A stretch of DNA of 64,000 nucleotides, from positions 30,729 to 94,728 of IMG/VR virus record IMGVR_UViG_3300032304_001060; one strand, 5' to 3'. The position numbers and the translations under genes were made by a program. Positions 64-32,623 of the stretch are shown one piece after another. The notes beneath the pieces are model-generated. The model did no database searches. It was not told where the DNA came from and worked only from the letters and a program-made list of their open reading frames with translations. This DNA is from a virus. Each line of letters opens with the position of its first letter. Position 1 is the first letter of the stretch.

Positions 64-117
64 GATCGAAACAGCACTTCGGTGCTGTCGCGTTGTTACG
101 CAACGCCTGATGAGATC
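64..117 (+). ncRNA. Hammerhead ribozyme, type II
   Basis: GATC-GAAA-CAGCAC(TTCG)GTGCTG-TC-GCGTTG(TTACG)CAACGC-CTGATGA-GATC: full catalytic core, stems I-III all pair, GUC cleavage triplet at 87-89. Confidence 0.93.
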
Positions 118-154
118 ACTTATCGGTACACCTAGACATGAAACGGAATAACAA

Positions 155-1036
155 ATGACCACAGATACAAAATCTCTCTTCGTACCAACACTCGCATCAA
201 CATCTCACTACATACCTCGCACATTCGCTGGCCACGTCGGCGAATTTGAAACATTCGATTACGCACTTGAAAACAATCTCAATGTGCTCATCGAAGGCGA
301 GACTGGAACTGGTAAGACTTCTGGCGTTATGGCGTACTGCGCCCAACGTCATCTCAACTTCTTTGCTGTTCCTTGCAACAGCGCAATTGATTTCACTCAG
401 GTGATCGGCGGTCTATTCCCGAATGCTGATGGCAAATTGGAATGGGTTGACGGCGGTATCACTCGCATCGTTCGTGAGGGCGGTGTCTTGTTGATTAACG
501 AATTAAACAATGCGCCGAAGAATCTCTCTCAGTACCTCATGTCATTACTTGATGATCGTCGCTCGATCACTCTCATGGGTCATGGCAACGAGGTTGTGAC
601 TGCACACAAGGACTTGCTGATCGTTGCAGATCAGAATCCAAATTATCGTGGCACTCAACTTCTCAATGAGGCATGGAAAGATCGCTTCGAGATTAAATTG
701 CGTTACAACTACGACAACGCGATTGAGAAGAAGATCGTTACATCGTCAGCACTTCTGGAACTTGCGAATGGAATTCGTTCTACATCGCGCCAGAATGAAT
801 ACGCATCAGATCGCGGAACGATCTTCGAGACCCCAGTATCGCCTCGTCTACTTAAGACGTTCGAGAAAATCGCTCGTGATCTTTCATACGACTTTGCAGT
901 CGATAACTTCGTCAACAACTTTACCGATGAAGAACGCCCTGCGGTGAAGATGCTCATCGAAGGTGCTTCATACAACATCAAGGAAGAACTCGGTCTTGCT
1001 GTTGATTCAATCACCACCGAACACGCCAACGCGTAA
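155..1036 (+). CDS. MoxR/CbbQ/CobS-like AAA+ ATPase
   Basis: Walker A GETGTGKT, Walker B-like LLINELN, NPNYRGTQLLNEAWKDRF sensor/Arg finger; followed by VWA gene. Confidence 0.88.
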   Translation: MTTDTKSLFVPTLASTSHYIPRTFAGHVGEFETFDYALENNLNVLIEGETGTGKTSGVMAYCAQRHLNFFAVPCNSAIDFTQVIGGLFPNADGKLEWVDGGITRIVREGGVLLINELNNAPKNLSQYLMSLLDDRRSITLMGHGNEVVTAHKDLLIVADQNPNYRGTQLLNEAWKDRFEIKLRYNYDNAIEKKIVTSSALLELANGIRSTSRQNEYASDRGTIFETPVSPRLLKTFEKIARDLSYDFAVDNFVNNFTDEERPAVKMLIEGASYNIKEELGLAVDSITTEHANA

Positions 1037-1045
1037 GGAGATTAC

Positions 1046-2944
1046 ATGTCATCAATCAAACTCTATGAAGATTTCCTTTTAGGAGATCAATCAGAGGCTA
1101 AGGAACAACGTCGTATCGCAGATGAAAAGCGACAGAGACTTGAACGATTCACTCAATTCTTTGGTCGTGTGAATTCTGCATTCACATTCCGCAAAGTGAC
1201 TGTCAAGGTTGAGGACTCACCTATCGGTGCACCAGCGTGGTCTGGTGCATCGGAGGTGACATTCAATTCTCGTTTACTTGATCTCGATAGTCCGCAATCA
1301 ATTGCTGGCTTGAAAGGTCTTGATCTACACGAGATCAGTCACATTCTTTATACGCCACGTGAGGGCTCTGAGATATTTGATTACGTCAAAGAGAACGATT
1401 ATCTACAGGCATACAACTGCCTCGAAGATCAACGTATCGAGACACTCTTTACATCAAAGTATCCGTCAACGATTGATTGGTTCACAGCCACGATCTTGAT
1501 TCACTTCGTTGATAAGCCAGAGGCATTCAACGCTTCTTATCCGTTGCTACGCGGTCGTAGATACTTACCCGTTGAATTGCGTGCACGCTCTCGTAACGCA
1601 TATATCAATCAATCTAATCTCGATGAAATCTGCGAGATCGTCGATGCCTATCGCTCTCTTATCTTTCCTACTGATACTGAACAAGGAAAAGATTTAATTG
1701 CGCGATTCCACAAACTATTGCCAAAGCAGGATTCACCTGCTGGCGAAGGACAGGGCACACAGACTGTCACAGTACGGATTCAAGACCCGTTCGGACATGG
1801 TGAGAGGCCACAGGAGGGTATTGAGTCATCGGTTGATTCACGCCCTGTATCGCCACTTAAGCAGAAGCAGGATCGTGCACGTTCACAGGCCAACGATGGT
1901 GAAGATGATTCGGCTCTTGCTGATTCACTTCGCAACGATGATCTCGTGATCGATATTGATCTATCTGGTGCAGGTGACGATGGTGATGCTGATGCTGATG
2001 GTGATGGTGATGATTCTTTGGATTCTGATAATTCATCTGATGGTGATTCTGCTGGTGATTCTGCTGGTGACATGACAATCATTCAAGATTTTCTCGATGA
2101 TCTTTTGAATGACGAAAATGTTGCTAGTGAAATCAACAACATCATTCGACAAATTGGTGGAGCACCTTCTCTTTCTACCAATGATTCGAAAGAACCGAAG
2201 ATCAAGGACTACATGTCGCTCAGTCCAGATGCAGATACATTTCATGCATCACTTTCTTTCGGTCGTGAATTAGAACGATTGAAAGCATCATTCGACCCTG
2301 CATGGGATAAGTACGAGTCACAGGGGCGTATCGATGCACATCGTTACCTTCGCGGTGATGATCTCGATACAGTCTTTGATCAATGGAATGAGGGTCGTGA
2401 AGATGCGACTGAAATTTCATGTGTGATCATGCTCGATACTTCTGGCTCGATGAATGGCACTAAAGCAACATCTGCATACAAAGCCATGTATGCAATTAAA
2501 CGTGCACTCGACAAGATCAATGCAGAATGTACTGTGATCACATTTAACGATTCAGTACACACGCTTTATCGTGCATCAGATAAGGCTGGTAACACTCTTC
2601 GTCATGCTGGAACTGGTGGCGGTACAAACGCTGATGAGGCAATCAGGTATGCGACCAAAGTGTTGGCCGAGACTGAGAAGCCTGTACGTGTTCTCTTCGC
2701 AATTACCGATGGGGATTGGTACGGCGATCAGACTCTCAACGATGAAGCGATCAGTCGCTTGTCTCGTGCTGGTGTGCTTACAGCACTTGCCTACATTCCA
2801 GAAAAAAAATCGTCAGTAAATCTTGCTGACATCAATTCTCATCAATGCGAGATCAAAGCAGTCGTGCGTAATCCAATTGACCTAATTGGAATGGCTCGAT
2901 CAATTACTCGCTACGCGATCAATCGCAGATTGATCAACAACTAA
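1046..2944 (+). CDS. VWA-domain partner protein (CobT-like) with N-terminal HExxH motif and acidic linker
   Basis: HEISH, NCLEDQRIE, MIDAS DTSGSM...GGT...ITDGD; D/G/S-rich linker. Confidence 0.85.
   Translation: MSSIKLYEDFLLGDQSEAKEQRRIADEKRQRLERFTQFFGRVNSAFTFRKVTVKVEDSPIGAPAWSGASEVTFNSRLLDLDSPQSIAGLKGLDLHEISHILYTPREGSEIFDYVKENDYLQAYNCLEDQRIETLFTSKYPSTIDWFTATILIHFVDKPEAFNASYPLLRGRRYLPVELRARSRNAYINQSNLDEICEIVDAYRSLIFPTDTEQGKDLIARFHKLLPKQDSPAGEGQGTQTVTVRIQDPFGHGERPQEGIESSVDSRPVSPLKQKQDRARSQANDGEDDSALADSLRNDDLVIDIDLSGAGDDGDADADGDGDDSLDSDNSSDGDSAGDSAGDMTIIQDFLDDLLNDENVASEINNIIRQIGGAPSLSTNDSKEPKIKDYMSLSPDADTFHASLSFGRELERLKASFDPAWDKYESQGRIDAHRYLRGDDLDTVFDQWNEGREDATEISCVIMLDTSGSMNGTKATSAYKAMYAIKRALDKINAECTVITFNDSVHTLYRASDKAGNTLRHAGTGGGTNADEAIRYATKVLAETEKPVRVLFAITDGDWYGDQTLNDEAISRLSRAGVLTALAYIPEKKSSVNLADINSHQCEIKAVVRNPIDLIGMARSITRYAINRRLINN
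1970..2070 (+). repeat. Low-complexity GAT/GGT/GCT triplet repeats encoding Asp/Gly/Ser linker
   Basis: gatggtgatgctgatgctgatggtgatggtgatgat and tandem ggtgattctgct. Confidence 0.7.
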
Positions 2945-2967
2945 CTGTCACGTCTAGGTGGCAACTG

Positions 2968-3005
2968 GTGGGGTGCGTTACTCGTGGAGGGCTGGCGCAC
3001 CCCAC
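2968..3005 (+). terminator. GC-rich stem-loop after VWA gene (terminator or mRNA stabiliser)
   Basis: GTGGGGTGCG...CGCACCCCAC 10-bp inverted repeat; no U tract. Confidence 0.5.
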
Positions 3006-3038
3006 TCCACACACAACTATTAATGGGAGAACAAATAA

Positions 3039-3659
3039 ATGAAATTTCAAGAATTAGAACTCGGTATTGAATACGGCGTTATTCCATCATGGGAATACTC
3101 ATCGAAAGATAAAAAGAATCCAGATACAGTCGTTCGTAGACAGGTTGCAAAAGCAACTTTGGTATCGCTGGATAAGTACGAGTACATCGTTTATCGATCA
3201 GGACAAGCCGATAGTCCAAACTTCAAACCAGCACCCAAAGGTTCCAGAAGTGTTGGTTATCTGGTGCAGTCACATGATTGGGCTGAGGCAGGAACGACAG
3301 ATTCGATCTTCTGGCTTGCACGTCCTCAAGACATCATCGCTCCTCATGCTGATCTTGAAGCGCGTTGGGTTATTAAAGAGGCAGAAGAGAAGGCTCAGAT
3401 CGCCAAAGAACAGGCCGAACGTGAAGAACAAGAACGCATCGAACGTGAAACAACGGCGCGTGAGCAACGAATTGTTGATTCATGTATTAAGGCTCTGAAT
3501 TCAATTATCGGAACACAATTAACCGAACACGTGTATGCACAGGTAGGTCGATCATTTAGCCATGGTGTATATCAACCGAATGCAGAATTTCGTCTTAACG
3601 GACGCACGATGCAAATCCTGATTGAAAAAGTACTAGAGGCCAGAGATGAGGTGGCGTAA
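3039..3659 (+). CDS. hypothetical protein
   Basis: 206-aa ORF, GGAG RBS, coupled to next gene. Confidence 0.75.
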   Translation: MKFQELELGIEYGVIPSWEYSSKDKKNPDTVVRRQVAKATLVSLDKYEYIVYRSGQADSPNFKPAPKGSRSVGYLVQSHDWAEAGTTDSIFWLARPQDIIAPHADLEARWVIKEAEEKAQIAKEQAEREEQERIERETTAREQRIVDSCIKALNSIIGTQLTEHVYAQVGRSFSHGVYQPNAEFRLNGRTMQILIEKVLEARDEVA

Positions 3660-4381
3660 TGGAGACAGCAACAATTGATCGCGTAGAGAAACTACGCAAT
3701 TACTATGAAAAGTACGATCATGCAGTCGGCACTACATTCACAACAACATGGTGTGGGAGACGTTTTCGATTGCCTTATGTAGCAGAGGTAACACAACTTG
3801 AACGCGAGTACATTCGAGAGGAGTACGAAGGGTTCGAATTAATAATCACAAAATCTTCTTGGAAGTATCAAGAGATTTTTGATGTCAACGGCGATCACTT
3901 TAAACATGGCAACGTATTAAAAGATGAAATTGATGGGCGTGGGAAAGAACAATTCCGTACTGAGTATATTGCTTTTGCATGGGAGATCAAAGATCACTAC
4001 CTTCATGCAGAGTTAAATACTCCGCATGCTTTTGAATTTTCAGTTTTGTGTGGCCTTGGAATCTCGGATTCGTATGACAAGACTCGAAAGACTGCAATTA
4101 AAAAGTTAGACACACTTAAAAAAATCAAAGATGTCTTGCCACGTCTTATCGCAATCTGTGATGAGAGGTTGTTGATTGGTCATGATCAGAAAGAAAAGTA
4201 CAGACCATTCAACGTACTAATTGGTGATGAGGTTTTCGTTCAAGCCCATGGGCGAAAGCGCAAGGGAATTGTGGTTGGTACAACTGGCTCACGATTTATC
4301 GTGGGCTATGTAACGCCTTCAAATTATCGTGACCTTAAGTACAAGACCCTTGGAATGGAACATCTATGGGTGAAGCCGTAA
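3659..4381 (+). CDS. hypothetical protein (possible C-terminal SH3-like barrel)
   Basis: 240-aa ORF, TAATG coupling; IGDEVFVQ...KGIVVG motif. Confidence 0.7.
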   Translation: METATIDRVEKLRNYYEKYDHAVGTTFTTTWCGRRFRLPYVAEVTQLEREYIREEYEGFELIITKSSWKYQEIFDVNGDHFKHGNVLKDEIDGRGKEQFRTEYIAFAWEIKDHYLHAELNTPHAFEFSVLCGLGISDSYDKTRKTAIKKLDTLKKIKDVLPRLIAICDERLLIGHDQKEKYRPFNVLIGDEVFVQAHGRKRKGIVVGTTGSRFIVGYVTPSNYRDLKYKTLGMEHLWVKP

Positions 4382-4776
4382 AACTATGTGGGAGGTGCAA
4401 GGTTGAACAATCAATTGACAACTTCGACACCTACAACAGAGGTGCAATCGAAGTCTGCAAGCCATGCAGACGAGAGCGCGGTCGTGAGTACTACAAACGA
4501 TCACGTCCACACATCAAAGAGTGGATTTACGATTACTTATCGAGTAATCCATGTGTCGACTGTGGTGAGAACGACCCCCTGCGACTCGAATTCGATCACC
4601 GAAGTGAGAAGCACTTCAACATCGGTAAGTCATTTATCGGTAAAGCAAAGAACATCGAGATCGTCCAATCTGAGATCGCAAAGTGCGATGTCCGATGCGC
4701 TAATTGCCACAAAGTAAAAACGCACAAAGAACAAGACACTTGGAAATACCGAATGTCCGTAGAAAGGAATCAGTAA
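4366..4776 (+). CDS. HNH endonuclease
   Basis: CVDCGE...LEFDH...KCDVRCANCH, plus N-terminal CxxC pair. Confidence 0.85.
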   Translation: MGEAVKLCGRCKVEQSIDNFDTYNRGAIEVCKPCRRERGREYYKRSRPHIKEWIYDYLSSNPCVDCGENDPLRLEFDHRSEKHFNIGKSFIGKAKNIEIVQSEIAKCDVRCANCHKVKTHKEQDTWKYRMSVERNQ

Positions 4777-4949
4777 TGAAATTAAATCGCAGAGGTTGGA
4801 TTGTGCTGGTTGTTATTCCAGCAATCGTTGCAACACTCTTTTTTACATGGGCAACGCGTGATGTCTGCTATGTAGGTGAGGGTGGAAATTTCTTGGGCTA
4901 TGGCTCATGCACTCAGATGATCGACAATGCAATTAATGGAGGAAAATAA
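4776..4949 (+). CDS. small membrane protein
   Basis: MKLNRRGWIVLVVIPAIVATLFFTW; TAATG coupling at 4774-4778. Confidence 0.7.
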   Translation: MKLNRRGWIVLVVIPAIVATLFFTWATRDVCYVGEGGNFLGYGSCTQMIDNAINGGK

Positions 4950-5108
4950 ATGAAAAAGTGGAACATAAGTGAGGACACAGTACTGATGCGGTGCTGTGAT
5001 GAAGTGCAATTCGAGTACACATGCTCAGAGTGTGGTGAAAGAGGCGGTTGCTACTTCTGCGATTTCAATCTTGATGAACCCTGCGAATGTAAGGAGGAAA
5101 ATAAATGA
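4950..5108 (+). CDS. small Cys-rich protein (52 aa, not in ORF track)
   Basis: MKKWNISEDTVLMRCCDEVQFEYTCSECGERGGCYFCDFNLDEPCECKEENK; GGAGG RBS, ATGA overlap with next gene. Confidence 0.65.
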   Translation: MKKWNISEDTVLMRCCDEVQFEYTCSECGERGGCYFCDFNLDEPCECKEENK

Positions 5109-5311
5109 CAAACGAACCAGAAAACCAGATCACACTTGTATGGAGTACAGAGGACATTCAAGAACTCTGCCCACAGATGAGCGATGAAGAAGCGATCGAA
5201 GCACTCCACACGATTCGAGAGACATTCAAAGATAGATCAACCGAAGAAGGTTGGAACATTCTTGAATGTGCACTTGAATTTTACGGATTCATTCCAGAGG
5301 AAGAGGACTAA
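5105..5311 (+). CDS. hypothetical acidic protein
   Basis: 68 aa, AAGGAGG RBS. Confidence 0.7.
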   Translation: MTNEPENQITLVWSTEDIQELCPQMSDEEAIEALHTIRETFKDRSTEEGWNILECALEFYGFIPEEED

Positions 5312-5314
5312 TAA

Positions 5315-5482
5315 ATGGGATACATCGAAACAATCAGGATTACACCTGAGCAACTTGATCTCTGTGACAACTGCAATCAGCAAGGACTGAAAGCAAGTGG
5401 TCACTACGCAAACGATTCTTATGGAGAAGCAGTTATTTTCTTCTGCTTCAACTGCAAACGAAAATTGATAACACTTAAATAA
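5315..5482 (+). CDS. small zinc-finger protein (55 aa, not in ORF track)
   Basis: MGYIETIR...CDNC...CFNC; GAGG RBS. Confidence 0.65.
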   Translation: MGYIETIRITPEQLDLCDNCNQQGLKASGHYANDSYGEAVIFFCFNCKRKLITLK

Positions 5483-5491
5483 GGAGAACGT

Positions 5492-5824
5492 ATGTCAAAA
5501 GATCAAGACGATCTCGTTAAGTCACTTAGATTCGCCAATGAATTCCTCAAAGTTACTCGTGGATTTAAATTGGAGTCACAGCGACCAGACGGGTTGCCAC
5601 AAGAACTAAAAGAACATCTTGCAAACGAACACTTGAATGCACTCATCGAAGAGCACGAACTAGAGCCAGAGATGTTGATCTGGGGCTTGCTACACATGCT
5701 CGAAGTAGTGTTGAAGTACTCAGAACTAAGTCCAGAGGAACTCTCCGAAGTAATGGAGCAGTTTATTCACGCAGTAGAACACACGCCTGAGATATTCGAT
5801 GGAGATGATGATGACCACCGCTAG
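5492..5824 (+). CDS. hypothetical protein
   Basis: 110 aa, AAGGAG RBS. Confidence 0.7.
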   Translation: MSKDQDDLVKSLRFANEFLKVTRGFKLESQRPDGLPQELKEHLANEHLNALIEEHELEPEMLIWGLLHMLEVVLKYSELSPEELSEVMEQFIHAVEHTPEIFDGDDDDHR

Positions 5825-6095
5825 ATCAGAATTACTAGACGGCATGACACCGACGATCACAGGTGCGCCATGTCAATCAACAGAACCAGAGATATTCTTT
5901 CCAGACCCAACTGATTACGAAACGATCAAGGTTGCCAAAGAATTTTGTGCATCATGTAAGGCAGACGTTAAAAATAAATGTCTGTCATTCGCTCTCGAAA
6001 ACAAGATTTGGTATGGAGTCTGGGGAGGACTTACAGAACGTGAACGCATGAACTTCCGCAGACAACAGATGAGAAGGGAATATCGGAATGACTGA
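5811..6095 (+). CDS. whiB: WhiB-family transcription factor
   Basis: APCQSTEPEIFFP...CASC...KC...GVWGGLTERER: four Cys and GVWGG turn. Confidence 0.93.
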   Translation: MTTARSELLDGMTPTITGAPCQSTEPEIFFPDPTDYETIKVAKEFCASCKADVKNKCLSFALENKIWYGVWGGLTERERMNFRRQQMRREYRND

Positions 6096-6288
6096 TGAGA
6101 TCACAGACGATCTATGGTGGAACTGTGTTTACGAATATGCACACATGGATTTATCTGCGCTATTTGTAGTAAAGATTTACGCACCAACTAAAGAATTGGC
6201 CATTGAAGAGGCTGATAAACAATTAATGGGATACCTATTGCTACCTAGCAATTGGGAATTTGTAGACTGTCAGGAGACAACAAACTAA
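6088..6288 (+). CDS. hypothetical protein
   Basis: 66 aa, overlaps whiB stop. Confidence 0.65.
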   Translation: MTDEITDDLWWNCVYEYAHMDLSALFVVKIYAPTKELAIEEADKQLMGYLLLPSNWEFVDCQETTN

Positions 6289-6392
6289 TGAGATGCAAAG
6301 AGTGTGGCGCAAAAATTGTTTACGTAAGCATGACAGAGCATGGAACATGGTCATGTAGCGACTGCGGTTGGGATACGGGGGTGGAGGACTAA
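6288..6392 (+). CDS. tiny zinc-ribbon protein (34 aa)
   Basis: MRCKECGAKIVYVSMTEHGTWSCSDCGWDTGVED; TAATG coupling at both ends. Confidence 0.6.
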   Translation: MRCKECGAKIVYVSMTEHGTWSCSDCGWDTGVED

Positions 6393-6577
6393 TGACTGAT
6401 TGGCTCACCAGCAAAGACATCGCAGAACAAACTGGTCTGAAATTAGACACGATTTATACATACAGACAGCGCAAGACGTTGCCTGAACCCGATTACACGA
6501 TCGGCAGAACACCGCTATGGAAGCAATCAACTATTGATGAATGGAATTCATCTCGATCAGAATTGGAGATTAATTAA
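6392..6577 (+). CDS. AlpA/excisionase-like HTH DNA-binding protein
   Basis: WLTSKDIAEQTGLKLDTIYTYR...LPEPD...GRTPLWKQSTIDEW. Confidence 0.8.
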   Translation: MTDWLTSKDIAEQTGLKLDTIYTYRQRKTLPEPDYTIGRTPLWKQSTIDEWNSSRSELEIN

Positions 6578-6708
6578 TGGCAATCAAGTACCGAGACTGT
6601 GCAGAGTGTGCAGATCAGCACAATGTAAATGACATGTATCCATACGAAGGTTGGTACATCTGCCAGCCATGTCTAGACGAGTCATTCGTATTAATGGAGG
6701 TCAAGTAA
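6577..6708 (+). CDS. tiny zinc-finger protein (43 aa)
   Basis: MAIKYRDCAEC...ICQPCLDE; TAATG coupling at both ends. Confidence 0.6.
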   Translation: MAIKYRDCAECADQHNVNDMYPYEGWYICQPCLDESFVLMEVK

Positions 6709-6842
6709 TGACACAACTGATCGTCTACATCGATCTTCCAGAAGATCACAAGGTCGATGAAGAACCGAAATTCATGGAAGCAATCAAAGACACGCTTGAG
6801 ACGAACGATCACATAACTTATTGGGAGTGGGAGATTCGTTAA
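6708..6842 (+). CDS. hypothetical protein (44 aa)
   Basis: MTQLIVYIDLPED...; GGAGG RBS. Confidence 0.6.
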   Translation: MTQLIVYIDLPEDHKVDEEPKFMEAIKDTLETNDHITYWEWEIR

Positions 6843-6873
6843 GTAACTTTTATCTCCGCCAAAAAAGTTACTT
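6841..6873. repeat. 11-bp perfect inverted repeat (candidate recombinase or regulator site)
   Basis: AAGTAACTTTT-N11-AAAAGTTACTT. Confidence 0.6.
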
Positions 6874-6932
6874 CTAAACACATAAGTAGATCGCAATCTT
6901 CACTAGCCGTATCTAGTCTCAACAATTGAGAT

Positions 6933-6962
6933 GCCCCAGATGAGAATCTGGGGCTTTTTTTT
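6933..6962 (+). terminator. Rho-independent terminator
   Basis: GCCCCAGAT-GAGA-ATCTGGGGC followed by T8. Confidence 0.9.
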
Positions 6963-7003
6963 GACATCGAAGTTACTCATCAGTAACATTACCAACCAGT
7001 AAC
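6961..7003 (+). promoter_or_regulatory. sigma70-type integrase promoter overlapped by two palindromic boxes
   Basis: TTGACA-N17-TAACAT (6961-6989); GTTACTCATCAGTAAC (6972-6987) and ATTACCAACCAGTAAC (6988-7003). Confidence 0.7.
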
Positions 7004-7020
7004 ATCATGAAGGAGGGCTC

Positions 7021-8283
7021 ATGGCATACGTTGTTAAGCGTGGCGATCGCTACACAGGCTATTATCGCAAGGGCGGTAAACGCCTCTCTGCTGGCACATG
7101 GCCAACGAAAACCGAGGCCGAATATCACGCCATGCAAGCGGACAGATCGGCTGGCACAGAGCCTTCTAGGGCTGTAAATGACCTATCGACCTATCTGGAT
7201 TCATGGCTCAAGAGTGCCGATCTCATGCCTATCACGCTCAAGGGATATAGATCGGTACTGGAGAAGTACGTCATGGCGGAATTAGGCGCGGTCAAAGTTA
7301 CTTCAATTTCAAAGCGGGCGATCTCAGATTTACTTCAAAAATTGAAGGCGCAGGGCGTGGGGTCTGCAACTATCCAGCAGGTCAAGGCGAGCCTAGGGTC
7401 GGCCTTCTCGCACCTCGTGGCCACAGGCGAACTAGCCGAGAACCCCACCCATGGCATCAAGGTCAGAGCACGCCATGCAGACATTGAGAAGATCATCGAG
7501 CCTGAAGAATTCAGGAAGATACTCAGTCACCTTCAGATCCAAGGTGCAAAGTTACTTGCCCAATTCCTAGTCGCATCAGGGTGCAGATTCGGAGAGGCGA
7601 CCGAGATTCGGGTCAAGGACATCAATCTCAAGACAGGCGAGATATTCGTCCAGAGGCGAGTCAGCGATCTGGGCAAGAGCCATAGCAATAGATTCATGGT
7701 CATTGATGCCACAAAGTCGGGTCATAAGCGAAGCCTGACCATAAGCAAAGCCTTACTACAAGAGATTCGAGACTATGTCTCAGCAAAAGCCCTATCAAAA
7801 GATGATCTGCTGTTCTCAAGGTTACTGGTGTGTGAACAAAGTAAAATAATAGATTCTCGTGGTGAAAAGTCTAAGCGACCATTCGCCCAAGACGGAAAAC
7901 TGTTCCAGCATGGAACGCTGTACGCCTATACCCATGGGCGGTGCAGGTGCGGTGAATGCCGAGAGGCGATGCGAGAGTATCGTCGAAAGGCAAAGCCATA
8001 CCAGAAGCAACAGCGATTCATCGACCAAACGAGTCACCTGCCACGAGATGTATGGAGAAAAATCTGGAACAAAGCAATAGACAAGTCCGCAATCGGGTGG
8101 ACTCCTAGAACCCATGACCTACGGCACGCTAATGCCACTCAACTTCTAAAAGGTGGGGTGGACTTGCACGAGGTCAAGGAAAGGCTAGGTCACCAATCGA
8201 TCAAGACGACAGAGCGATACCTACATCGCCTTCGTCACAACCAGTCAACGGCAGGGGAACTTGCCAATGACTTTTTGGAGTGA
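7021..8283 (+). CDS. int: tyrosine integrase/recombinase with inserted zinc-finger-like segment
   Basis: GCRFGE, TKSG, HDLRH, LGH, TERY catalytic set; AGGAGG RBS. Confidence 0.92.
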   Translation: MAYVVKRGDRYTGYYRKGGKRLSAGTWPTKTEAEYHAMQADRSAGTEPSRAVNDLSTYLDSWLKSADLMPITLKGYRSVLEKYVMAELGAVKVTSISKRAISDLLQKLKAQGVGSATIQQVKASLGSAFSHLVATGELAENPTHGIKVRARHADIEKIIEPEEFRKILSHLQIQGAKLLAQFLVASGCRFGEATEIRVKDINLKTGEIFVQRRVSDLGKSHSNRFMVIDATKSGHKRSLTISKALLQEIRDYVSAKALSKDDLLFSRLLVCEQSKIIDSRGEKSKRPFAQDGKLFQHGTLYAYTHGRCRCGECREAMREYRRKAKPYQKQQRFIDQTSHLPRDVWRKIWNKAIDKSAIGWTPRTHDLRHANATQLLKGGVDLHEVKERLGHQSIKTTERYLHRLRHNQSTAGELANDFLE

Positions 8284-8819
8284 TGATGAAACATCTACAT
8301 AGAAGCCGAGTACTGATCGGTGGGGCTATCTCAGTCCTAGTGACAGGTCTAGGGGTCGTGGCAGGACAGCCACAAGCCATAGCACCAGTCAAAGCCGAAG
8401 CAGTAGTCATATCAAAAAGCACAGTCCGAATGAACACGCTGGCCAAGTACAGCAACGCAGATAGCCTGACCGATCGTGATCTGGTCAAGTTACTAGGTGC
8501 TGTCGGGTTCGAAGGCAAAGCCTTACGACAAGCGTGGGCAATCGCTAAGAAAGAATCAACAGGACGACCTCTCGCCCATAACGGAAACCGAAATACTGGA
8601 GATAACTCTTACGGGTTATTCCAGATCAATATGCTCGGTTCTCTGGGCGAAGAGCGACGGGATAAATTCAGTTTAGGTTCAAACGCTGAATTGCTCAACC
8701 CTGTGGTGAATGCCAAAGTCGCTTATCACATGAGCGATGCTGGGCAGGACTGGAGTGCATGGAAGGGAACTAATACGAAGCGAGTCAAGTACTGGCTAAG
8801 TAAATTCCCTAAGGCATAA
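8280..8819 (+). CDS. secreted lytic transglycosylase (SLT/lysozyme-like)
   Basis: N-terminal hydrophobic signal; AIAKKES catalytic Glu, YGLFQIN, WSAW. Confidence 0.85.
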   Translation: MMMKHLHRSRVLIGGAISVLVTGLGVVAGQPQAIAPVKAEAVVISKSTVRMNTLAKYSNADSLTDRDLVKLLGAVGFEGKALRQAWAIAKKESTGRPLAHNGNRNTGDNSYGLFQINMLGSLGEERRDKFSLGSNAELLNPVVNAKVAYHMSDAGQDWSAWKGTNTKRVKYWLSKFPKA

Positions 8820-31376: not shown

Positions 31377-32623
31377 ACACGGCTCCAGTCAGAGCAATAC
31401 TTGCACTTAAATACTTCATCCTCATCGTGGAAGCATCCAGTCTCCCAGCGCCATGTCAGCGCCGTCTCTGTAGGACCGCAGTTACGACTTGCAACAACCT
31501 TTAGGTTACGAAGTTCTTCATCTTCTTCAATAGGTTCGAGACCAAGAATTACGTCAGAGTCTTGGAAGAATGAGGATGAGTAACCAATTGAATCAGCAGT
31601 TACCTTTCCAGCACGCATCTTCCATAAGAGTGTCTGAGTAGTAATGATGACTGGCTTGTCAATCTTTTGAGCAAGTCTCTTGAGTGCACGGGTGATGTTG
31701 GTGATGGCTTGGGGAGTGTTCATCTCACCTGTGATCTCATCAAGCATGAGGTAAACACCGTCGACAAACACAATGTCAGGTTTTGTCTGTTCAATCTTTG
31801 CGGCTAATGCAGAGACTGTAATTCCATTTACAGCATCAACCAAATGGAATGAGTGCTCCTTCTCCATCTCATTCAAGATATCGATGTAGCGTGCTTCTTC
31901 TGCTGGCAAAAGTTTTCCTCGACGCAATCGACCATGAGAAATGTTTGCACGCATTGCATCGTGACGTTGTTGTTGCTCATGGTTGTTCATCTCAAATGAT
32001 TGAAACATTGGGATGTTACCTTGACGATGGATATTGATTGCCATCTTTAATGCAATCTGAGACTTACCTGTCTTTGGTGGAGCAATGATTGTTACCAACT
32101 GCCCACCTTGCAAACCAGCAGTTGCTTCATCGATCTTTGCAAACCCAGTAGGTATTCCTAAAAACTCTGCGTTCTGTAACGCTTGATATTCCTTGTAGCG
32201 TTCTTCGGTGTTCTTTGTAAGATCGATCTCATGAGTTCCAAGTACCCCTTGCTCATTGACCTTAGTGATTGTCGCTTCCATTGCAAGAAGAGCAGCGTCG
32301 TGGTTGTTCTCTTGTAGTTGCTCAATTGCACTCTCAAGACCTTGACGGGTGAGCATGCGACGACGGAAGTCAACCATCGTATCAAGAAGATACTCAACAT
32401 TATCTTGTACATCTAGTACTTTGTAGTTTGGGTAGTGATCTTTAACGGTGACAGCAGTAGGCACTTCGTTGTATTCACCGTAGTGCTTACGAACGAATGC
32501 CCATACTCTTTTGTTTTCATCATCAAGAAACCATGCGTCATTAACACCACGTTGTAACGCGGGGATGATGTCGCGGTCACGAATGACCTTGCTGACTAAA
32601 CGATGTTCGTTATCTGCTGCCAT
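31373..32623 (-). CDS. dnaB: DnaB-like replicative helicase
   Basis: IPTGF, APPKTGKS, SFEM, FVDG, QDSD, SRN. Confidence 0.93.
   Translation of the reverse strand: MAADNEHRLVSKVIRDRDIIPALQRGVNDAWFLDDENKRVWAFVRKHYGEYNEVPTAVTVKDHYPNYKVLDVQDNVEYLLDTMVDFRRRMLTRQGLESAIEQLQENNHDAALLAMEATITKVNEQGVLGTHEIDLTKNTEERYKEYQALQNAEFLGIPTGFAKIDEATAGLQGGQLVTIIAPPKTGKSQIALKMAINIHRQGNIPMFQSFEMNNHEQQQRHDAMRANISHGRLRRGKLLPAEEARYIDILNEMEKEHSFHLVDAVNGITVSALAAKIEQTKPDIVFVDGVYLMLDEITGEMNTPQAITNITRALKRLAQKIDKPVIITTQTLLWKMRAGKVTADSIGYSSSFFQDSDVILGLEPIEEDEELRNLKVVASRNCGPTETALTWRWETGCFHDEDEVFKCKYCSDWSRV

Follow-up and report, generated by a model that had tools for sequence, protein, structure and literature searches.

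What is the RNA element encoded directly upstream of the AAA ATPase gene in this phage genome, and what might it do for the genes that follow? The window analysed here, i.e., the whole stretch of 64,000 nt, belongs to a genome of 94,728 nt, entered in IMG/VR as a virus record with direct terminal repeats. That type II hammerheads occur close to phage genes and in the gaps between them has been known since 2011 (PMC3088659). They flank prophage genes and cut polycistronic RNAs of ~2 kb in vitro, an arrangement that Perreault et al. read as the processing of long transcripts into gene-length mRNAs (PMC3088659) and that a review from 2019 still termed unproven in this role (PMC6765202). Desulfovibrio vulgaris contains three type II hammerheads close to phage-like genes, and these cleave in vivo (PMC8782182).

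The preliminary description had placed a type II hammerhead at positions 64-117 of the + strand, and our reading of the sequence bears this out, with every core nucleotide and stem as claimed and the coordinates exact. All nucleotides that define a hammerhead are present within these 54 bases and occur in type II order. Read directly as RNA, positions 61-120 consist of AAA, GAUC, GAA, ACAGCAC, UUCG, GUGCUGU, C, GCGUUG, UUACG, CAACGC, CUGAUGA, GAUC and ACU. The 3' strand of stem II (GAUC, 64-67; positions 11.4-11.1) pairs with 114-117 and is followed by the core residues G12, A13 and A14 (GAA, 68-70). Stem III is a hairpin (71-88) formed by the A15.1-U16.1 pair and six further pairs (A71-C77 with G82-U88) around a UUCG loop. 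C17 at position 89 ends a GUC triplet (87-89), from which, by the hammerhead rule, cleavage is predicted between C89 and G90, in agreement with the earlier proposal. The adjoining stem I hairpin of 17 nt (90-106) pairs G90-G95 with C101-C106 around the loop UUACG and would become the 5' end of the downstream RNA; its six pairs increase to seven if U96.G100 is counted. The second part of the core, C3, U4, G5, A6, U7, G8 and A9 (CUGAUGA), occupies 107-113 and leads into the 5' strand of stem II (GAUC, 114-117; positions 10.1-10.4). Unpaired adenines flank stem II on both sides (A63 and A118). All three stems are perfect, with 7 bp in stem III, 6-7 bp in stem I and 4 bp in stem II. The order of elements is 11.x-GAA-III-C17-I-CUGAUGA-10.x, and loops close stems I and III while the 5' and 3' ends lie within stem II, as in the type II topology.

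To judge this motif, we adopted the criteria by which Perreault et al. 2011 accepted hammerheads (PMC3088659). All 13 core positions are present, the core-adjacent pairs G114-C67 (10.1-11.1), A71-U88 (15.1-16.1) and G90-C106 (1.1-2.1) are intact, and none of the short stems carries multiple mispairs. Moreover, all three helices are backed by covariation among relatives, stems I and III by 81 relatives and stem II by a wider scan (see below). For the 63-nt RNA folded alone, the structure of minimum free energy is the three-way junction (-21.5 kcal/mol, z -3.4), and 0 of 200 shuffles folded as well. As judged from its sequence, the element at 64-117 is a real and complete type II hammerhead and, as such, one further member of a kind already known.

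The Rfam model Hammerhead_II (RF02276), which had been suggested as a check on the motif, did not match the ribozyme at any threshold. Scanning with Rfam 15 (cmscan) gave no hammerhead at the gathering threshold over the 64 kb, nor at E values of up to 10 in slices of 300 nt and 86 nt. The sole match of RF02276 in the whole genome (G000:C1:10917-10990, corresponding to L043 1501-1574; 10.9 bits) contains CUGACGA but has CAAAA in place of GAAA and is not a hammerhead. In the alignment of this 10.9-bit match, the consensus of RF02276 displays a stem II of 2 bp followed by the conserved tail AGCCaAAg, and tails of this type pair with loop I as a pseudoknot (PMC3088659). The model scores sibling ribozymes in five other phage contigs of the family at 25-31 bits, below its cut-off of 37 bits, and misses both ribozyme copies in contig L073. 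The silence of Rfam thus stems from what its model is able to recognize and does not speak against the ribozyme. We turn to a covariance model, R1, derived from an alignment of 81 sequences (A2) from which the window and its relative L001 were left out. R1 scores positions 61-120 of the window at 65.3 bits (E 1.2e-15). Given the failure of the Rfam model here and the sub-threshold scores of the siblings, phage annotation under-counts type II hammerheads, and a model such as R1 recovers them.

The relatives behind this model form a large family. At least 118 stretches in IMG/VR match the pattern GATCGAAA-N12-24-TC-N12-30-CTGATGAGATC, for which our rough estimate, as opposed to a computed value, is ~10 chance matches in roughly 6e10 bases. 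Both hairpins are present in 116 of the 128 pattern matches listed, with 91 distinct sequences. In A2, 98% of the cells are paired, a percentage inflated by the restriction of the alignment to sequences with intact stems, the raw pass having already given 116 of 128. Changes on both sides were found for 11 of the 16 pairs of the alignment, and its covariation score of 0.706 compares with 0.135 for shuffled sequences and ~0.1 with the pairing partners slid. Across the 81 relatives, five of the six stem III pairs have changed on both sides and all six stem I pairs covary. A second scan of IMG/VR, in which stem II was left free, yielded at least 118 distinct copies, so that both scans together amount to at least about 200. 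Among the wider-scan copies listed, stem II measures exactly 4 bp in 106 of 118 and covaries, the combinations being GGUC/GACC (29), GGAC/GUCC (14), GGCC/GGCC (12), GAUC/GAUC (8) and others. The GAA core was fixed by the search patterns, and its invariance in the family is consequently no independent evidence.

Three further traits were imposed by no search pattern. An A/A closure surrounds stem II in 87 of the 106 wider-scan copies listed; its 5' residue is A in all 91 GAUC-type and in 100 of 106 wider-sample copies listed, and its 3' residue is A in 83 of the 91 GAUC-type copies listed. The stem I hairpin measures 17 nt in 90 of the 91 GAUC-type copies listed, and the first base of loop I is U in 91 of 91 GAUC-type and 111 of 118 wider-sample copies listed. 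The window copy shares these traits of the R1 sub-family, with a 4-bp stem II closed by A63/A118, a 17-nt stem I hairpin, U96 as the first loop base and GUC at 87-89. The RF02276 hammerheads (PMC3088659) have the catalytic core and the circular permutation in common with this family, with stem II open and loops on stems I and III. They likewise occupy gaps between genes of phages or prophages, on the coding strand, and a transcript-cutting role has been proposed for them. The RF02276 consensus differs in that it combines a 2-bp stem II with a pseudoknot between tail and loop I, whereas the window family combines a 4-bp, A/A-closed stem II with a 17-nt stem I hairpin and displays no excess of such pseudoknots: at least four contiguous pairs between loop I and tail occur in 18.4% of the family copies listed and in 18.4% of shuffled tails. 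In the window copy, the longest run between loop I and tail is three pairs, short of a pseudoknot of at least 4 bp. In this family, stems I and II must therefore be held together in another way, and we infer that the A/A closure and the U-first loop take part in the contact that replaces the pseudoknot.

With the motif and its family at hand, we considered its place in the genome. The ribozyme had been described as lying in the leader of the early arm, an assignment that our data do not bear out in this form: the long ORFs around the element are all on the + strand from ~2.2 kb upstream onward, and the family context is intercistronic. As had been noted correctly, 37 nt separate the end of the ribozyme from the ATG of the AAA ATPase gene at position 155. 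This gene (155-1036, +; Pfam PF07728, E 8.7e-21; phrog_249) encodes an AAA_5 ATPase of the MoxR/CobS-like type and is the first cistron after the ribozyme, followed by a gene for a VWA-domain protein as the second cistron (1046-2944, +; Pfam VWA_2 / VWA). The leader at 127-154 carries a weak GGA ribosome site ahead of the AAA ATPase start. Upstream of the ribozyme lies a hydrophobic ORF of 31 amino acids (L044 9819-9914), which is kept in L001 with mostly synonymous changes. Another ORF of 62 amino acids that runs through the ribozyme (L044 9963-10151) is spurious, its start being supplied by an insert that L001 lacks.

The same layout recurs in the family. Among ~90 members listed, a median distance of 1 nt separates the end of an upstream same-strand ORF from the start of the ribozyme, and an upstream ORF lies on the strand of the ribozyme in 79 of the 88 cases listed. 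The ribozyme ends at a median of 20-26 nt before the next ATG in the copies listed, with Shine-Dalgarno sites visible, and the usual order is upstream stop codon, ribozyme, ribosome site and next start. In L001, the TAA stop of the 31-aa ORF is followed immediately by the initial G of the ribozyme. Together, the same-strand ORFs upstream, this stop junction and the spacing in the family place the ribozyme between cistrons; by position it is an intercistronic element and not the leader of an arm, and the processing of intercistronic mRNA is its likely role. A scan of the + strand around the element for promoters and terminators returned nothing convincing, and the genome contains no tRNA genes with which the ribozyme could be associated. 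Three genes downstream of the VWA gene, the window encodes an HNH endonuclease (4366-4776, +; phrog_2255, E 2.9e-29). A DNA search against cultured phages gave no match; at the protein level, the AAA gene has its closest cultured relatives in Brevibacterium and Gordonia phages (41-43% identity), which provides a weak hint at an actinobacterial host.

We further compared the locus with 42 IMG/VR relatives of the AAA gene that were fetched. Only L001, whose AAA protein is 97% identical in amino acids, possesses the ribozyme, and the other 41 are without it. The ribozyme is thus dispensable for the AAA/VWA gene pair. In the aligned close relatives L002-L013, other sequence lies upstream instead, mostly a gene reaching to within ~25 nt of the start codon. 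Covariation based on synteny could not be drawn from these 42 relatives, as L001 alone has the ribozyme and its sequence is identical. Relative to the otherwise collinear L001, the window genome has a unique non-coding insert of 149 nt between the 31-aa ORF and the ribozyme (L044 9915-10063; genome 30643-30791), the 3' end of which forms positions 1-63 of the window. Neither repeats nor relatives among the fetched loci were found for this insert; it could harbor a promoter, of which none was detected. Between the window and L001, the ribozyme and the 37-nt leader are identical at 91 of 91 positions, compared to 830 of 882 in the AAA gene and 75 of 95 in the small upstream ORF. Third codon positions account for 40 of the 52 differences in the AAA gene. 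At the overall divergence of this gene, 91 nt should contain ~5 changes, and 0 were observed in this one genome pair, where recent recombination could also account for the identity.

On these grounds, we consider it likely that 64-117 is a catalytically competent type II hammerhead, carried on a polycistronic + strand transcript and serving as a natural insulator between the hydrophobic-peptide gene and the AAA/VWA pair. The motif, its place in a large covarying phage family and the stop-ribozyme-ribosome site context of that family are what the analysis shows. Cleavage in vivo is what we infer from them, as are all consequences for stability and translation. The cleavage chemistry of hammerheads is established. 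The three-way junction would fold during transcription and the RNA would cut itself between C89 and G90. The upstream product would then terminate with the very stable hairpin of stem III and its UUCG loop, bearing a 2',3'-cyclic phosphate, and the downstream AAA/VWA mRNA would, as hammerhead chemistry and the sequence dictate, start with a 5'-OH placed directly on the stem I hairpin. With stem II lost, the freed CUGAUGAG box would pair with a tail at 119-126 into a second 5' hairpin, leaving the ribosome site open. Both ends would be structured and exonuclease-resistant, and hence poor substrates for end-dependent nucleases, so that neither the stability nor the translation of the cistrons downstream would depend on the RNA upstream. 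In this manner, the 5'-OH and the hairpin might protect the AAA/VWA mRNA from decay. 5'-OH ends escape the activation of RNase E. The protection from RNase J that had also been put forward is doubtful and would depend on the host, since in Bacillus subtilis the glmS ribozyme yields a product with a 5'-OH end that RNase J1 does degrade. RiboJ-type insulators, engineered from a satellite-RNA hammerhead, place a hammerhead and a hairpin ahead of the ribosome-binding site. Similar to RiboJ, the window element is a hammerhead upstream of a ribosome site that would remove upstream RNA and leave a 5' hairpin; RiboJ is engineered, whereas the window element is natural, of type II and located within a phage operon.

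The tail deserves closer inspection, as it might act before cleavage as well as after it. Its sequence, CUUAUCGG (119-126), is complementary to the catalytic box at 107-114, and both can form an alternative hairpin (107-126) of 8 bp with the loop AUCA, in which C107-G114 pair with C119-G126. This hairpin replaces stem II and sequesters the catalytic box. For positions 61-135, it is predicted at -27.2 kcal/mol as compared to -21.5 kcal/mol for the hammerhead, i.e., 5.7 kcal/mol more stable, and the pair probability of stem II falls to 3e-4 once the tail is included (3' flank of at least 9 nt). Nearest-neighbor models ignore the tertiary energy of hammerheads, and with a flank of 20 nt added such folds lose stem II in 70 of the 92 family members listed. 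Two readings of the tail may be drawn from these models. It may give rise to the second 5' hairpin after cleavage, which we favor, or it may capture the CUGAUGAG box before cleavage and make the ribozyme bistable, with a partial or conditional cut, which we regard as unlikely. If the latter applied, how much polycistronic RNA stays intact relative to processed AAA/VWA mRNA would depend on the tail, and the hairpin could be opened by ribosomes or helicases acting on the leader, by temperature or by the speed of transcription. Apart from the difference in stability, such tuning would fit the strength of the duplex between core and tail (-8.4 kcal/mol; p 0.0035 relative to shuffled versions of this tail), the highest among the 196 family members listed, the full conservation of the tail in L001, where 118-154 are identical, and the occurrence of several unrelated copies in which a tail reading AUCAG or GUCAG pairs with CUGAU. 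Family-wide, 9.2% of the tails in the copies listed reach p<=0.05 as compared to 4.1% with a scrambled core; this enrichment is weak, however, and most tails are plain purine-rich ribosome sites. The tests thus back core masking weakly as a trait of the family, but strongly for the window copy. One strong case in 196 is roughly as extreme as can arise without selection. Transcription finishes the ribozyme 2 nt ahead of the first tail nucleotide, and folding during transcription would therefore favor the ribozyme first. Structure formed after the cut explains the hairpin equally well: nucleotides 90-126 of the 3' product fold at -16.3 kcal/mol while 127-154 stay open. We likewise give little credence to the more far-reaching proposal of a naturally bistable hammerhead whose tail is selected against stem II for the tuned or conditional release of a stabilized AAA/VWA mRNA, and whose pseudoknot-free family constitutes a distinct sub-class with an undescribed tertiary contact, systematically missed by Rfam. 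With the strongest masking tail among the 196 relatives listed, the window copy lends itself well to studies of whether phage hammerheads are regulated.

Two other explanations would deny the motif a role as a ribozyme altogether. The element might be a dead or irrelevant relic, its hairpins acting as a stabilizer or pause site, or the sequence might be a conserved junction for the recombination of cassettes, self-cleavage being immaterial in either case. The 41 of 42 AAA-gene relatives that do without a ribozyme, the 149-nt indel between the window genome and L001 exactly at the 5' edge of the ribozyme and the failure of the Rfam model to recognize it would agree with this, and so would the lack of a pseudoknot between loop I and tail, which other type II hammerheads need for fast cleavage at low Mg2+ (PMC3088659). 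However, all 13 core positions and the three core-adjacent pairs of the window copy are intact. Relics normally have core mutations. The invariance of the core across the family is no argument here, as the search patterns fixed it. The stems drift freely over at least about 200 copies, yet the A/A closure and the U-first loop, which no pattern imposed, are conserved, and this argues for selection on the folded ribozyme and not on the hairpins alone. We consequently think a relic improbable. The remaining explanation, a chance resemblance in an intergenic region balanced in AT and GC, is in our view exceedingly improbable. A loose descriptor (3-bp stems, 2-bp stem II) does match shuffled genomes 0.22 times per genome and a medium one 0.023 times, but the strict descriptor (stems I and III of at least 5 bp, stem II of at least 4 bp), which corresponds to the observed stringency, matched none of 300 shuffled genomes, and the R1 score and the identical copy in L001 weigh against chance as well. 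In the entire genome of 94,728 nt, the descriptor search gave a single match, and neither the descriptor nor R1 found a second ribozyme. An R1 match of 17.7 bits on the - strand of the window (31730-31799) contains no GAAA, is one base too long in the core box and is apparently coding (...VDGVYLMLDEITGEM... frame); we dismissed it as a chance match.

A catalytically competent hammerhead in the role of an intercistronic insulator, which is the reading we prefer, can be set beside previously described phage examples. The prophage clusters of Clostridium scindens, Agrobacterium tumefaciens and Azorhizobium caulinodans (PMC3088659) are likewise intercistronic and have varied phage genes as neighbors, and the ribozymes of Desulfovibrio vulgaris (PMC8782182) also lie between cistrons by phage genes. 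For these prophage and D. vulgaris examples, cleavage has been shown in vitro or in vivo; for the window copy it is predicted. Taken by itself, it is one more phage hammerhead among thousands. The rigid arrangement in which a stop codon is followed by the ribozyme and a ribosome site, on the other hand, fits the long-standing and unproven idea that phage hammerheads act as mRNA insulators, and the family supplies compact natural parts for testing it.

In contrast to the prophage clusters, the window genome carries a single copy in its 94.7 kb, while other contigs of the family contain arrays of 6-10 copies. Type II hammerheads form arrays of 10, 6 and 6 copies in L178 (- strand, 3366-8352), L166 (- strand, 86-4430) and L191 (2149-4803), respectively. 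In these arrays, one ribozyme occupies each gap between consecutive small ORFs, amounting to 10 ribozymes in 5 kb in L178. Some of the next start codons follow just 4-11 nt past the ribozyme, and the GAUGAGG in the 3' strand of the array ribozymes may itself serve as ribosome site. Furthermore, one exact hammerhead (stem III ACCCCCUCAAGGGGGU, stem I UUGAGGUUAAUCCUCAA) occurs in several contigs and twice within single ones (L053, L058, L085 and L122), a recurrence suggesting that ribozyme units have been duplicated, or copied by gene conversion, within a phage lineage.
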